Shown: positions 2,954 to 47,215 of the stretch, piece after piece
Position numbering within the stretch: the stretch's first letter is position 1
How the letters are laid out: each line of letters starts with the position of its first letter
Source: a virus
DNA length: 64,000 nt
Strand: one strand, 5' to 3'
Virus record (IMG/VR): IMGVR_UViG_3300028666_000026
Location: 1 to 64,000 of that record
Program-made: the position numbers and the translations under genes
Notes under the pieces: generated by a model
What the model saw: only the letters and a program-made list of their open reading frames with translations
What the model was told of the DNA's origin: nothing
Database searches by the model: none

Positions 2954-3156
2954 GTTTTTGCCCTCATTTCTTGCCCTCTACTGTTGCCCACACATTCGTG
3001 GTGCACTTCTGCGCCAGTTATGCCTAAACGCAACATCAATACTGTAGCAGCTTGCGGTGGTAGCAGCAATGCTCGCGCTGCGTCCAACACACCTGTTATG
3101 TAACAGCAGCGCTCCGGCGTGATGGCGGAAGCCTTTATAACTGGCTCGCTAGGCAT
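2950..3156 (-). CDS. hypothetical protein
   Basis: 68-aa ORF in tightly coupled minus-strand series. Confidence 0.35.
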   Translation of the reverse strand: MPSEPVIKASAITPERCCYITGVLDAARALLLPPQAATVLMLRLGITGAEVHHECVGNSRGQEMRAKT

Positions 3157-3778
3157 GTTCTGGCTCCGTCGAACATCCAGTGGCGTCAGACAAGGAGACT
3201 TTCTGATCTAAGAGTCGCGTATTATCCCAAATCCTTTGTAGCCAACGTGTCTGGTGCAGCGCGTCCTGCAGCGCGTTGTGTCTTACGCCCTTGAACGTCG
3301 GTTCTGGTACTGGAAACTGCGTCTTCATGGTTCGGAAGCATCTATTCATGTAGAAAGGCCAGGGCGCGTCCACATCGGCCTTCTTCATAGCGCATTGCAA
3401 TAATACATTGTCAAAGTCCGAACCGTTGCCCCACACTTCCAGGTTCGCTTCCAGATTCGCGCCTTGCGCTCTGAACCACGTACTGAACTGCATCAGCGCG
3501 TTGATAATGTGCACCGCGCGTACCGTTTGCTCGTCGCTGGCCGCGTTGAACACCATCCTAGCCTCCGGCGCTTGCCGGTTCCACCAATCTAGCGTGGCCT
3601 GGTCATCAGTCAACCCTATGAAGCGGCAAGACCGCCTGGAAATTGGCCCGGAGTAGTAGCACGGCCAATCGAGCTCCGCAACGCCAGGCGCGAACGCAAC
3701 AGCACCGATACTTATGATGCCACTGCCCGGCGCAGTACCGACAGTTTCTAGGTCAATCATTACGTCTGTGTAGTTCAC
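3149..3778 (-). CDS. DEDDh 3'-5' exonuclease (DnaQ-like)
   Basis: Exo I MIDLETVG; Exo III H-x-A-x-x-D (RHNALQDALHQ). Confidence 0.75.
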   Translation of the reverse strand: MNYTDVMIDLETVGTAPGSGIISIGAVAFAPGVAELDWPCYYSGPISRRSCRFIGLTDDQATLDWWNRQAPEARMVFNAASDEQTVRAVHIINALMQFSTWFRAQGANLEANLEVWGNGSDFDNVLLQCAMKKADVDAPWPFYMNRCFRTMKTQFPVPEPTFKGVRHNALQDALHQTRWLQRIWDNTRLLDQKVSLSDATGCSTEPEHA

Positions 3779-11276: not shown

Positions 11277-11351
11277 TGGTGGACCCGCAGGGATTCGAAC
11301 CCTGGACCGAAGGATTATGAGTCCTCTGCTCTACCGCTGAGCTACAGGTCC
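11277..11351 (-). tRNA. tRNA-Met (or Ile2) anticodon CAU, CCA encoded
   Basis: Cloverleaf read by hand: acceptor GGACCUG/CGGGUCC, D GCUC/GAGC, anticodon stem GAGGA/UCCUU loop CUCAUAA, T CAGGG-UUCGAAU-CCCUG, ACCA. Confidence 0.85.
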
Positions 11352-39903: not shown

Positions 39904-39976
39904 ACGAACGTAGCTCATTTGGTAGAGCACCAGGTTTTGGGCCTGGAGGCTGTCGGTCCGAGTCCGACCGTTCAAT
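39904..39976 (+). tRNA. tRNA-Gln (UUG) candidate
   Basis: D arm GCUC-AUUUGGUA-GAGC, anticodon stem CCAGG/CCUGG loop UUUUGGG, T arm GUCGG-UCCGAGU-CCGAC; acceptor has mismatches at 1-72/2-71. Confidence 0.4.
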
Positions 39977-39997
39977 GATTGAACCGCTACACTGGGA

Positions 39998-40069
39998 GTT
40001 GACATAGCTCAGAGGCAGAGCAGTTGATTCGTAATCAATAGGCCGGTGGTTCGATCCCACCTGTTGACT
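39998..40069 (+). tRNA. tRNA-Thr (CGU)
   Basis: Acceptor GUUGACA/UGUUGAC, D GCUC/GAGC, anticodon stem GUUGA/UCAAU loop UUCGUAA, T GGUGG-UUCGAUC-CCACC. Confidence 0.75.
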
Positions 40070-40325
40070 CCCTTGATGCTTTGAAGGCCGGACTGAGGAT
40101 TCGGAATAGCCTAGCCGTTTAACGTGAACGGCAAACAACGTGCGCAGAGGTTATGTGCCTCCTAAGCGTGGCGTTCCTTCAAAGCATCTTCAAGATTGAG
40201 TGTCCTAGTCCGAAACAGACTAGGTGGTGGAGGCGAGCCGTGAAAGGTTTGCCCCGTAAGTTAAGCATGTCAACACTGTGGTAGAAGCAATTTCGGACGT
40301 GGGTTCAATTCCCACCGAGTCCACC
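40070..40325 (+). ncRNA. tmRNA(ssrA)-like element with 3' tRNA-like domain and CCA
   Basis: 3' end AAUUUCGGACGUGGGUUCAAUUCCCACCGAGUCCACCA nearly identical in pattern to bacterial tmRNA 3' end; GGAUUCG near 5'; GCAAACAACG resembles resume-codon context. Confidence 0.4.
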
Positions 40326-40342
40326 AAAGAGTTCTGTGAGGA

Positions 40343-40585
40343 ATGACAATAACAGCGAAAGCTGATGGGCTGCGACTAAAGCGCGCAGACTATGCGAGCA
40401 GAACTCTTTTGTGGGCTCGTTCCGGTTTCGACGGAATTGACGAGCTACAGCTTCATGTCGGGATTGATGCTCACCGTAACGAGAATCAGCATAAAACTGC
40501 CACTCAACGTGTCAGCGAGAAGCGCAACAACGTGCTCGCCTTCCCTGTGAAGCGTCACGCTGCTGAACTTCAAATGGCTGCTTAA
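40343..40585 (+). CDS. hypothetical protein (first rightward gene)
   Basis: 80 aa, RBS GAGGA. Confidence 0.4.
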   Translation: MTITAKADGLRLKRADYASRTLLWARSGFDGIDELQLHVGIDAHRNENQHKTATQRVSEKRNNVLAFPVKRHAAELQMAA

Positions 40586-40922
40586 TCGCAGTCGGGGCAA
40601 GCCGGGTGATGCCTAGCAACAGAAGAGACCGGCAAGATAAGCGTGGCTGCTACGAGCCAGCCGGTGACTCTGGGATAAGCAGAGTGGACACAAGCAACAG
40701 CCGGAACAGCGTAGCCAGACGAGAGGTCCGACGTCTCGTCATTGAAGGGCATTTGAACTTTGTCTTTGAGTGCCCTTCGAGTTTGGGGAGCTGCAAACAC
40801 AGTAGCACAACACAGGCGTCTTAAGAGACACCTCGCGGCATGCGCCGCAATACGTTGTGCTGGGCAGCCATGGCGTGACGGGCAAGCATGCTGAGTCGCA
40901 CTTACCAATGGAGATAACTAAC

Positions 40923-41639
40923 ATGGCCACCGCTAAGAAGAAGCAGGGCGCGCCCAAAGCGTCAGCTTCATCGCGGGAGCGCCCATCGTCGCAGTCCAGA
41001 GCCGATGCACGCGCAGCGCGTAAAATAGCGTGGCGAGTAGGACATCGCAAAGTAATCGACGATATACAAGCTGCAAAACCCAGTGTGCCTGATCGTGTTG
41101 TAGGCATCATGGGCAAGTCCAAGCCTGATGTACAGGTGATTCGTACCGGCAAGATTGGCAGACCTCCCATTGCTTACACAGATGAGCTAGACGAGCAGCT
41201 ATTCGAGTTGATTGTGTCTGGTTTATCACTTGAGAAAATATCGCGTTTGTCCAACATGCCTAGTGTGTCTGTGCTCCTGTATTGGGTCGGAACGAAGACA
41301 CACCCGTTCTCAGCCACGTACGCGCGCGCTAAGGCGTTACTTGTCCCGCTTTACGAAGAACGCGCGATAGACCTGGCTACGGAGCGGCAAGAGGCAACCA
41401 TCCACGTGGTGCGTGACGGCGAAGATGGGTCTTACATCGAGACGCGGAGAGTAGACGCCGTGGAGCGCAGTAAGTTAGGTGTGTCTGCTTACCAGTGGGC
41501 ACTTGGGTGGATGGTGCCTAAGAAGCACGGACGCAATCCTGACGACGGCAACAAGGGACCCAACGAGCAGCTGAAGTCGCTGTTCGACAATCTCATGTCC
41601 GGGCCGGTATTGAAGCAAAAGAAGCAAGGAGTCAAGTGA
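40923..41639 (+). CDS. putative terminase small subunit
   Basis: Basic N-terminus, GRPPIAYTDELDEQLFELIVSGLSLEKISR HTH-like segment; directly upstream of TerL module. Confidence 0.5.
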   Translation: MATAKKKQGAPKASASSRERPSSQSRADARAARKIAWRVGHRKVIDDIQAAKPSVPDRVVGIMGKSKPDVQVIRTGKIGRPPIAYTDELDEQLFELIVSGLSLEKISRLSNMPSVSVLLYWVGTKTHPFSATYARAKALLVPLYEERAIDLATERQEATIHVVRDGEDGSYIETRRVDAVERSKLGVSAYQWALGWMVPKKHGRNPDDGNKGPNEQLKSLFDNLMSGPVLKQKKQGVK

Positions 41640-45605: not shown

Positions 45606-45974
45606 ATGAGTGAGCCTCAAGTAGACATGACCAAGTGGGCCGATCGCGCCGCCACGCCTGAAGAAGTTCAGCTGGCGCAGCAGGCCGACCTGCCCGAAGG
45701 CCCCAAGCCTATCGCCGTGTTCATACCGGCCATTGACATCAGAATGCTTTACGCTGCGCGCACTTCGCCCGAGCAGTTCAATCAGTGCATACTGGCCAGG
45801 TTGAAAGACGCTGGCGCGCCGGTTGAAGGTACGATCCATTTGAAGCTGGCCCACGGAGCCGTCGCCAAGAAGAAGTCCAACCCGCTGGTGGACGAAGGCG
45901 GATTCACGTATCTTTGGTTGAGCGAAGAATATGTCCGCGCAATCATGACAGCGAAGGGCGGAGTATTGGGATGA
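45606..45974 (+). CDS. hypothetical protein
   Basis: RBS AGGAGAG, internal Met start. Confidence 0.45.
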   Translation: MSEPQVDMTKWADRAATPEEVQLAQQADLPEGPKPIAVFIPAIDIRMLYAARTSPEQFNQCILARLKDAGAPVEGTIHLKLAHGAVAKKKSNPLVDEGGFTYLWLSEEYVRAIMTAKGGVLG

Positions 45975-47215
45975 TACTAACGCGCGTTGCAGGCGTGTTC
46001 CCTGTGCTTGTGCGCGCGACGGACGCAGAGCCTGAGTTCGTCGAAACCAAGCATCCTCGTGATAAGGACGGCAAGTTTGCCAAGGGCAGTGGCGGCGGCG
46101 CTTCTAAGTCATTGCCCAAGGGTATGGAGCACTTTTCCGGTCAGCAATACAAGAACGCATCAGCGTTTATACAAGCCGCGCTGAAGGAGAATCTGGCCAG
46201 TAAATCCAATAAGTACAACAATGCGCAGATAGCTGAAGCAGCGCAGGCAATGTTCGGCACCAAGACTTCGCCGTTCACTGTTAACGGCTACAAGCACGCG
46301 GTGTACAACAAGAGCCCAGAAGGACAAGCGCTGCTGGCTGCCAAGAAGGCAGGAGTCAAGGCCAACAATGAAGTCATAGCTGCAGCGCCCACTTCGCCGG
46401 CAGCTGTTAAGGCCGCTGTGGCCAATGTTGTCAGCGGCGTGACTATGTTCGCCAGCGTTAAGAAGAACGGCGTGACAACGTTCGTGAAGTTGAACGGAGT
46501 GCCTAGTAACTTCAGCGGTGACATGGTCAAGCAGTACATAAAGGAGCTGGGCTACGACGCGTACAACGTATCGGAGTTCAACCCAAGTAAGCCAGCGCCG
46601 CCTTCTGTCACTGAATTGACAATCAGCCCAGAGGCAGCAGAAGCTGTACAGAAGGCAGCCAAGAAGAAGGCCGAGGCAGAAGCAGCTGAGTACGCAAAGG
46701 CAGCAGCGGCCAAGGCTGAGGCCAGTAAGCCAGTCACCAAGCATACCAGCCCTATTACGGCCAGCGAGATTGAAGTTATTGAGTCGTACACTAATGGTGC
46801 GTATGGCGCGATGAATAAAGCACTGCGCAATGGCACCAAGTTGTCCTCACAGGAAGCCATCAGAATTAAGCAGTTGGACCAGGCCATTGCCAAGTCGGTA
46901 TTGGAGAAACCGTGCACACTGCGACGCGGCATTTCTGCCACTGACATCGCCAGCGTTATAGGGCCCAGTCCCAAGGTTGGCGACGTTGTGATGGACAACG
47001 GCTTCATGTCTTCTTCTAAGGGCAAGGGATTTGGCGGCAATATTCGCATGACTATCAACATGCCTGCTGGGGCGCACGCGTTGGATGTGCAGAAGTGGTC
47101 TAATCACAGCAGTGAAATGGAAGTGATTTTGCCTCGTGGTTCCATGTTCGAGATCAAGAGTTTTGGCAAGACAGAATCAGGCGTAATGCTCGAGGTTGAC
47201 TATGTCACGGTTTGA
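45971..47215 (+). CDS. ADP-ribosyltransferase (R-S-E toxin type, T4 Alt-like) virion protein
   Basis: C-terminal domain with Arg (TLRRG), STS (FMSSS), E-x-E (SEMEV) in canonical order; YTNGAYGAMNKALR. Confidence 0.75.
   Translation: MILTRVAGVFPVLVRATDAEPEFVETKHPRDKDGKFAKGSGGGASKSLPKGMEHFSGQQYKNASAFIQAALKENLASKSNKYNNAQIAEAAQAMFGTKTSPFTVNGYKHAVYNKSPEGQALLAAKKAGVKANNEVIAAAPTSPAAVKAAVANVVSGVTMFASVKKNGVTTFVKLNGVPSNFSGDMVKQYIKELGYDAYNVSEFNPSKPAPPSVTELTISPEAAEAVQKAAKKKAEAEAAEYAKAAAAKAEASKPVTKHTSPITASEIEVIESYTNGAYGAMNKALRNGTKLSSQEAIRIKQLDQAIAKSVLEKPCTLRRGISATDIASVIGPSPKVGDVVMDNGFMSSSKGKGFGGNIRMTINMPAGAHALDVQKWSNHSSEMEVILPRGSMFEIKSFGKTESGVMLEVDYVTV

Follow-up and report, generated by a model that had tools for sequence, protein, structure and literature searches.

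This report deals with a 64,000-nucleotide (nt) stretch of viral DNA (positions 1 to 64,000 of IMG/VR record IMGVR_UViG_3300028666_000026), called the window in its full length, and with a cluster of RNA genes on its plus strand. The cluster consists of a tRNA-Gln, a tRNA-Thr, a structured spacer, and a transfer-messenger RNA (tmRNA; gene ssrA), and it sits where the genome switches from its replication module to its packaging and structural module. In our reading, ~40196-40640 on the plus strand is very probably (roughly nine chances in ten, judged from sequence and structure comparison) a functional, circularly permuted (two-piece) tmRNA gene of an uncultured tailed phage of ~105 kb. The gene extends over ~450 nt, is complete and phage-borne, and belongs to an element type already known from phages. 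An original prediction for 40070-40325 had rightly recognized something tmRNA-related rather than a plain tRNA, but pictured it as a compact tmRNA within that interval or as an attachment-site fragment, and it is neither. The interval did take in the acceptor piece and its leader; it also included an unrelated junction structure and ended short of the 5' acceptor strand, resume codon, and tag, which are at 40413-40585.

Detection and architecture of the tmRNA gene

Two independent detectors concur on the locus. ARAGORN assigns 40234-40676 to a permuted tmRNA (tmRNA*) and reads its tag peptide as ATQRVSEKRNNVLAFPVKRHAAELQMAA, and the Rfam model tmRNA_permuted (RF04321; gathering score, 47 bits) aligns over its full length (model positions 1-213) to 40265-40585 with 77.8 bits (E = 3.4e-13). 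Together they support a permuted tmRNA and place the tmRNA-type 3' end far beyond chance. The prediction had proposed this very check and had held that the lack of any covariance-model hit, together with the lack of a stable transcript, would speak against a tmRNA; the permuted model does match, whereas the standard tmRNA model RF00023 finds nothing in the window. Besides the score above threshold, the order of the parts marks the permuted form: the acceptor piece comes first, then an 86-nt intervening loop and the coding piece, with the CCA end at 40326 lying upstream of G1 at 40413.

The core of the acceptor piece (40265-40326) is defined by the RF04321 alignment and by covariation. On the model alignment it carries the 3'-side strands of helix P2 (40265-69, 40278-81, 40289-91, and 40293-95) and the T-arm GUGGG-UUCAAUU-CCCAC (40299-40315, also evident on direct reading); the D-analogue UUUCGGAC with its GAC (40291-40298) is read directly. 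The acceptor 3' strand CGAGUCC (40316-40322) follows, and then the discriminator A73 at 40323 and an encoded CCA at 40324-40326. These parts are the ones on which the claim of a bacterial tmRNA-like 3' end had been founded, and both detectors bear that claim out; only the end itself had been set one base short, at 40325. The other half of the acceptor stem opens the coding piece: GGGCUCG (40413-19), followed by GGUUUCGACGG, pairs with CGAGUCC at 7/7 positions and gives G3:U70 (G40415:U40320). The tRNA-Ala-like domain accordingly has its 7-bp acceptor stem, G3:U70, A73, encoded CCA, and T-arm with T-loop.

In the 5' part of the coding piece (40413-40498, likewise defined by the RF04321 alignment and covariation), the 5'-side strands of the three-part P2 helix (40432-34, 40436-38, 40445-48, and 40454-58) are followed by pseudoknot 1 (PK1; 40459-40487), with stems S1 (40459-61/40474-76) and S2 (40466-72/40481-87). 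The tag reading frame called by ARAGORN (40499-40585, 28 codons) begins on the resume codon GCC at 40499 and stops at UAA (40583-85). Pseudoknot 2 (PK2; 40594-40633) comes next, with S1 formed by GGGCA (40595-99) and UGCCU (40610-14), S2 by GCCGG (40601-05) and CCGGC (40629-33), and with an alpha-type loop motif, CCUAGCAACAGAA, at 40612-40624. The mRNA-like domain thus shows PK1, an alanine resume codon, and a short open reading frame (ORF) ending in a hydrophobic ...AA and a stop. The original prediction had placed the resume context at GCAAACAACG (40131-40140) and derived the tag ANNVRRGYVPPKRGVPSKHLQD from it; those letters fall inside paired helices of the upstream junction and have no counterpart in any relative. 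Its concern that the tag lacked the usual ALAA ending has gone as well, with the tag read here ending in ...LQMAA.

The intervening segment (40327-40412) is an inverted repeat that prolongs the acceptor stem as a long hairpin, and the precursor including it folds with -56.7 kcal/mol (z = -5.2). Downstream of PK2, a 3' tail (40634-40785) contains hairpins found as inverted repeats (40644-59, 40718-40, and 40744-78); ARAGORN ends the gene within it, at 40676. Upstream, the conserved unit starts with leader hairpin H0 (40204-40224; stem CCUAGUC/GACUAGG, loop CGAAACA). A leader box, UGGUGGAGGCG, follows at 40225-40235, as delimited by family alignments, and then hairpin H1 (40232-40253; GGCGAGCC-GUGAAA-GGUUUGCC). 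H1 was obtained by folding and positioned by comparison with the RF01849 alignments of the relatives L021 and L018 (such numbers denote individual loci); it is the counterpart of a hairpin that the Rfam alpha_tmRNA model places 5' of P2. We considered and dropped a helix between 40246-56 in the acceptor-piece leader and 40593-603 in the coding-piece tail: by eye it is not kept in relatives, and it competes with H1 and PK2.

Covariation and tag conservation among relatives

Contigs of viral or metagenomic origin were scanned by pattern and yielded ~24 distinct relatives. Homology with these relatives begins at ~40190-40196. The closest, L026, shares the window's acceptor stem and H0 stem and differs by one base in the H0 loop.

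We counted base pairs in a 21-sequence alignment, with the structure drawn from the window and with slid 3' partners and 500 shuffles as controls. The proposed pairs are formed in 93.2% of cells, as against 36-44% in the slid controls. Compensatory changes occur at 28/44 pairs, and none of the 500 shuffles matches any of the observed measures. Pairing reaches 100% in the acceptor stem, T-arm, and P2a, and G3:U70 is kept in 21/21 sequences; the acceptor stem occurs in at least six sequence variants among the relatives, each fully paired and each with G3:U70. In PK1, S1 is paired in 98% and S2 in 85% of cases, A-U pairs being replaced by G-C pairs in a compensatory way. Covariation extends to the PK2 stems (e.g., GCCGG/CCGGC, UGCUGGA/UCCAGCG, and GCCGCGA/UCGCGGC), and H0 has compensatory changes at 5/7 pairs among the 10 members possessing it. 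The intervening segment, on the other hand, varies from 3 to 146 nt without sequence conservation, and such length variation is expected of an excised loop.

Long tags of 26-29 amino acids (aa) are found in 14 distinct family members, namely the window and 13 others; among those of the relatives are ATTRDSKKSAKVLAFPARTVALQMAA, ATNRDSAKSAKVLAFPAMPEALPMAA, AKNTDSAKNAKVLAFPARPAVALQMAA, and ATQRDSMRKNNVLAFVPRFVAPMQLAA. A few relatives have short tags, such as AEPFALPMAA in L009. Codon differences in the tag frame concentrate at third positions (1116, versus 821 at first and 775 at second positions), 453 codon differences are synonymous, and the peptide core S.K..KVL.FP...LQMAA is conserved. As far as codon patterns go, this shows a tag under constraint at the level of the peptide.

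Lineage and distribution of the family

On lineage, the relatives and the window behave differently toward the Rfam models. Several relatives reach the threshold of 50 bits for the alphaproteobacterial model RF01849, with 77.8 bits for L020, 63.5 for L021, 59.5 for L011/L012, and 50.6 for L018/L019. For the window, no RF01849 match is listed, a partial match to the betaproteobacterial model RF01850 having won the clan competition. That partial match is the best lineage-specific one of the window (51.5 bits versus a threshold of 84) and covers model positions 71-172, i.e., the tRNA-like domain only, plus a 9-bit fragment. When the 3' domain (40445-40700) alone was compared with Rfam, only noise was returned.

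PK1 of the window has the form CGG..GAUGCUCACCGUAACGAGAAUC and is combined with the PK2 loop CCUAGCAACAGAA; in relatives, both motifs align to the alpha consensus, the PK2 loop at ACCuGGCAACAGAA. L020 is a canonical alpha-type tmRNA, and it has a PK1 17-mer in common with the family. The T-loop does not follow the alpha consensus GGCgGUA; it reads UUCAAUU or UUCGAUU in the window and in most of the family. Judged by homology, then, the permuted tmRNA is alpha-related, and not a demonstrated member of RF01849. A 25-nt segment covering the D-analogue and T-arm is not lineage-specific, since it is also identical in one-piece tmRNAs. These are the standard tmRNAs of L001, L002, and L003 (IMG/VR records of 94, 44, and 96 kb), which match RF00023 with 113.6 bits and carry the tag ANNNNFVLAQAA.

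Across one genome per species for 185,579 species, the PK1 17-mer has 84 matches. They fall in unrelated phyla, agree roughly with chance expectation, and never stand in a tmRNA context. Among the 50,697 phage records of INPHARED, nothing is similar to the coding piece. The tag motifs have no relevant occurrence in the searchable literature (full texts, and the supplements of two papers). As far as our exact-motif and blastn searches can tell, this tmRNA family is known only from uncultured viral and metagenomic contigs. The portal protein gives no hint of the host, its best isolate-phage match having 37% aa identity and the hosts being mixed.

Weighing the alternatives

Several observations weigh against a functional permuted tmRNA in the window. 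Among its listed matches to lineage-specific tmRNA models, none reaches the gathering score. The commonest tag length being 10 aa (PMC11915505), its 28-aa tag is unusually long, and the last three residues are MAA instead of LAA. On the plus strand, neither a promoter nor a terminator consensus turned up. An SmpB gene was not found in ~79 of the 105 kb (30 scanned ORFs plus precomputed Pfam flank matches), so that reliance on the SmpB of the host is presumed. Finally, the closest relatives by TerL (L006 and L007; 77% aa identity) keep the tRNA-Gln but have no tmRNA, which makes the tmRNA accessory and dispensable for this phage lineage.

The resemblance to enterobacterial ssrA 3' ends noted in the prediction is real: blastn of 40190-40326 matches ssrA and attachment-site (att) fragments at 77-83% identity, the likeness lying in the last 40-65 nt. 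In INPHARED, moreover, the acceptor piece matches enterobacterial ssrA 3'-end att fragments only, in P2-like and lambdoid phages. Both points would suit an ssrA-derived phage attachment site (attP), that is, a copy of a host tmRNA 3' end used for integration and not a functional tmRNA. Such att fragments match the 3' end only, however, whereas this locus also has the acceptor 5' strand, P2, PK1, the tag frame, and PK2, and these covary. Nor was the nearby integrase that the prediction had associated with an attP found: the same ~79 kb of ORFs and flank matches contain no integrase or recombinase domain, and the gene stands in a tRNA cluster ahead of the terminase genes. Given a complete gene and no integrase found in ~79 of the 105 kb, we reject the attP reading as highly improbable. 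A compact one-piece tmRNA within 40070-40325 would have its 5' end near GGACUGAGGAUUCGG (40090-40104) and its tag starting from GCAAACAACG. GGACU (40090-94) can indeed pair with AGUCC of the acceptor 3' strand, and a 22-codon frame is open from 40131. Yet this makes only 5/7 acceptor pairs and puts A-U instead of G:U at position 3, so that alanine identity would be lost, while the downstream GGGCUCG pairs 7/7 with G3:U70 and covaries. GGACUGAGGAUUCGG is itself the helix A hairpin of an unrelated, self-contained four-way junction without homologue in the relatives, L026 included, and the one-piece model RF00023, as said, does not match. We give this arrangement next to no credence.

The doubts listed above (absence from the closest TerL relatives, no SmpB found, and a low lineage-model score) could also be taken as signs of a decaying, non-functional relic recently captured from a host or another phage. 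Against this stand the intact G3:U70, A73, CCA, T-loop, alanine resume codon, AA-stop ending, and both pseudoknots, as well as the purifying selection on structure and tag across diverse contigs. The PK1 signature, being found in no tmRNA context among the genomes of 185,579 species, argues for long residence in viruses, and decay seems to us very unlikely. Gene callers, for their part, annotate 40343-40585 as an 80-aa protein-coding gene: the ORF is open from ATG at 40343 to TAA at 40585, and it is called on the Logan contig (L245, 713-955). In four relatives, however, a stop at -9 or -12 interrupts the reading frame ahead of the resume codon. The conserved nucleotides do not keep to one frame across members (the spacing from G1 to the resume codon is 80, 81, 86, or 87 nt), the conservation upstream of the resume codon is base-pair covariation, and the N-terminal part of the protein would lie in the unconserved intervening segment. 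With frames shifting among members and upstream stops in relatives, a genuine protein here has hardly any chance of being the right reading; on these comparisons, the ORF is an annotation artefact spanning the intervening loop, PK1, and the tag. A functional, permuted tmRNA thus remains the reading we favor.

The leader box and leader inserts

The leader contains a short conserved element complementary to the CCA end. Its box, UGGUGGAGG(C), is carried by L004, L009, L011, L018, L023, L025, L026, L030, L170, and L238. The core GGUGGAGG is invariant in 10/21 aligned members, while the flanking hairpin covaries. On direct reading, UGGUGGA, the first seven bases of the box, is the exact complement of U70-CCACCA76. 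The box could therefore sequester the CCA end in the precursor. In 5 true family loci, a pattern scan located the box 5' of the tRNA-like domain. Four of the nine viral matches to the pattern 'box...TTTCGGAC' (L008, L010, L013, and L014) were set aside as chance matches in GC-rich coding sequence.

Leaders of several relatives carry stem-closed inserts of ~40-150 nt, located between H1 and P2 in L024/L031, L033, and L188, and 5' of H0 in L004/L170 and L025. In insert-bearing members the distance from box to T-arm is 156-194 nt, against the usual ~70. By eye, the inserts of L004, L024, and L033 start with UUUGC... and finish with ...GC(A/G)AA.

The four-way junction between tRNA-Thr and tmRNA

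Between the tRNA-Thr and the tmRNA leader lies a window-specific four-way-junction structure (40075-40188, plus strand). An inverted-repeat search gave its perfect 13-bp closing stem (40075-87/40176-88), and folding gave helices A (40088-92/40100-04), B (40114-21/40125-32), and C (40137-40175). Its minimum free energy is -47.7 kcal/mol (z = -4.3), none of 200 shuffles being equally stable. The closing stem is among only five perfect inverted repeats of >=12 bp (loop <=150 nt) in the 64 kb, and it can be extended to ~18 bp with one bulge.

Homologues were found neither by blastn in 240 fetched loci nor by exact 19-mer in IMG/VR, there is no second copy elsewhere in the phage genome, and Rfam returns no match. 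L026 lacks both the junction and an upstream tRNA. With no counterpart in any of these places, the junction is, on comparative grounds, not part of the conserved tmRNA unit. Identities as a hammerhead, a Y-RNA-like RNA, a retron non-coding RNA, or a tRNA-like element were dropped by eye, with no motifs, Rfam matches, or partner genes to go with them.

We favor a spacer role for the junction, as a structured segment of a tRNA-tmRNA co-transcript; as its closing helix reaches ~18 bp, it could also be a processing site. That it is instead a functional RNA in its own right (a stable phage small RNA or a dedicated processing or insulator module) and not a neutral spacer is possible but, in our judgment, rather unlikely. 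The perfect closing stem, rare for its size in the window, the three helices, and the fold's z-score speak for such a function, and L004/L170 and L025 have 10-bp stem-closed modules at the same position, directly 5' of the leader hairpin. On the other side, the lack of a homologue in the searched loci means that there is no covariation evidence, the closest tmRNA relative has no junction, Rfam has no match, and L018-type relatives show (by eye) an apparent promoter at this position.

Phage genome context

The RNA cluster starts with tRNA-Gln (UUG) at 39904-39976 on the plus strand (ARAGORN; Rfam tRNA, 51.5 bits). tRNA-Thr (CGU) follows on the same strand at 39997-40072 by ARAGORN, and at 39998-40069 by Rfam tRNA with 62.5 bits; it has no encoded CCA, its discriminator U at 40069 being followed by CCC. 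A third tRNA, tRNA-Met (CAU), stands alone on the minus strand (11277-11351), 29 kb from the cluster. The relatives L020 (IMG/VR, 175,952 bp) and L009 (138,516 bp) have 10-12 tRNA genes plus a two-piece tmRNA.

The first gene after the cluster encodes an Sf6-like small terminase (TerS; 40857-41639, plus strand; Sf6_terminase match). It belongs to a plus-strand block with TerL, a Mu-F-like protein, and the portal protein, the latter with a C-terminal InPase-type domain. The minus-strand block encodes a helicase, DNA polymerase A, a primase, a dCTP deaminase, a NUDIX protein, and a PD-(D/E)XK nuclease. DNA polymerase, helicase, primase, TerL, TerS, portal, and Mu-F identify the window as phage DNA.

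The window maps to the source contig, ENA ERZ27245386 k141_12260 (105,390 bp), only with wrap-around, and the contig has a 141-nt terminal overlap equal to k; this overlap indicates a complete circular assembly of ~105.25 kb. A 26-kb Logan contig from SRR8464963 is 100% identical over 17.7 kb and hence shows no strain variation.

Some further genes deserve mention. An RlaP-family nucleotidyltransferase of an RNA-repair pathway (22347-23381, minus strand; 4e-10) and an Rv2179c-like 3'-5' exoribonuclease (3149-3778, minus strand; 8e-39), taken with the tRNAs and the tmRNA, suggest that the phage invests in the maintenance of RNA and translation. An 870-aa ORF (19178-21790, minus strand) is major-vault-protein-like, with Pfam MVP_shoulder (8.5e-23) and a Vault_3 repeat (5e-11) and no PHROGs match. 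In the head-morphogenesis module, an ADP-ribosyltransferase of the Alt-like/exoenzyme toxin family (45914-47215, plus strand) adjoins the Mu-F-like and portal genes.

Proposed mechanism and significance

How the tmRNA would work can be sketched by analogy with known two-piece tmRNAs, for which we drew on review text (PMC11915505, PMC9004378) and on work in Caulobacter. The RNA cluster would be transcribed as one precursor. RNase P would cut 5' of G40413, tRNA 3'-end processing enzymes would expose the CCA at 40326, and the loop would be discarded, leaving two RNAs held together via the acceptor stem and P2. Host alanyl-tRNA synthetase would charge the tmRNA by way of G3:U70, and host SmpB would bring it to ribosomes stalled on broken mRNAs. 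Translation would then resume on GCC at 40499 and add the 28-aa tag, whose C-terminal ...QMAA would send the product to host proteases. The likely benefit for the phage is that ribosome recycling is sustained in infection while mRNA is cleaved.

This tmRNA gene does not overturn current understanding. It does correct an annotation, in that a locus called an 80-aa hypothetical protein is better read as a complete two-piece tmRNA, and it adds a well-supported family of ~24 distinct sequences to the short list of phage tmRNAs. Phage two-piece tmRNAs thereby extend beyond the marine T4-like phages of the first descriptions. With loops of widely differing length, structured inserts, and a CCA-complementary leader box, the family also offers natural variation for studies of permuted-tmRNA processing, and its long conserved tag offers a way of testing why phages encode a ribosome-rescue RNA themselves.

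Two small features deserve a note, namely the four-way junction and the CCA-complementary leader box. A bolder proposal would join them to the tag in a virus-restricted clade of two-piece tmRNAs, in which the core S.K..KVL.FP of the 26-29-aa tag serves beyond marking for proteolysis, the UGGUGGAGG box controls 3' maturation or charging by pairing with U70-CCACCA76, and the junction is a functional module. As a whole, we consider this improbable and put it forward as speculation; if it were true, the tag core might engage a phage or host adaptor or divert tagged host proteins.

Comparison with known tmRNA systems

Alphaproteobacteria, some Betaproteobacteria, and cyanobacteria are established carriers of two-piece tmRNAs, the two-piece ssrA of Caulobacter having reportedly been described by Keiler, Shapiro, and Williams in 2000. 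A 2025 tmRNA database has 79 phage entries. A 2021 survey counted 133 unique phage tmRNAs, of which 53 were two-piece; marine phages such as Melnitz supplied most of these (PMC9004378). Mycobacteriophages and Bacillus phage G have one-piece forms (PMC4131195).

The one-piece tmRNAs of the mycobacteriophage Bxz1 group and of Bacillus phage G resemble the window's in being phage-encoded and often located among tRNA genes. These RNAs and the tRNA-like-domain-only (TLD-only) RNA of DS6A are unpermuted or tagless (PMC4131195), whereas the window's gene is permuted and has a full tag. The ssrA 3'-end att sites of P2-like and lambdoid enterobacterial prophages share 77-83% identity with it over the last 40-65 nt; they are 3' fragments tied to integrases, in contrast to a whole gene with no integrase found. 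The betaproteobacterial two-piece tmRNA (RF01850) is the best lineage model for the tRNA-like domain of the window, at 51.5 bits, but it stays below its threshold of 84, and only this generic domain aligns while the lineage-specific flanking domains do not.

Closer in kind are the two-piece tmRNAs of marine phages (Methylophilales phage Melnitz, pelagimyophages, and cyanophages), which are likewise complete, phage-borne permuted ssrA genes, alpha-type in the marine phages, with no integrase and no phage SmpB reported (PMC9004378). For these, it was proposed that they keep translation going or tag proteins in infection (PMC9004378). The window differs from them in that its coding piece has no detectable similarity to any INPHARED isolate phage and the gene comes with neither a glutamine riboswitch nor another Rfam element. 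Its phage, furthermore, is not T4-like but has an Sf6-like TerS and a Mu-F/portal module, and its tag is much longer.

Set beside the alphaproteobacterial two-piece tmRNA (RF01849), the window has the T-loop UUCAAUU in place of GGCgGUA and no listed match to the alpha model. Its 28-aa tag is unrelated in sequence to the typical short tags, its leader has a hairpin and a UGGUGGAGG box that are not in the alpha consensus, and the family is found on viral contigs only. What the two share is the order of acceptor piece, loop, and coding piece, the restriction to two pseudoknots, one (PK1) ahead of the tag and one (PK2) behind it, the core of PK1 and the loop motif CCuGGCAACAGAA of PK2, and the hairpin 5' of P2.

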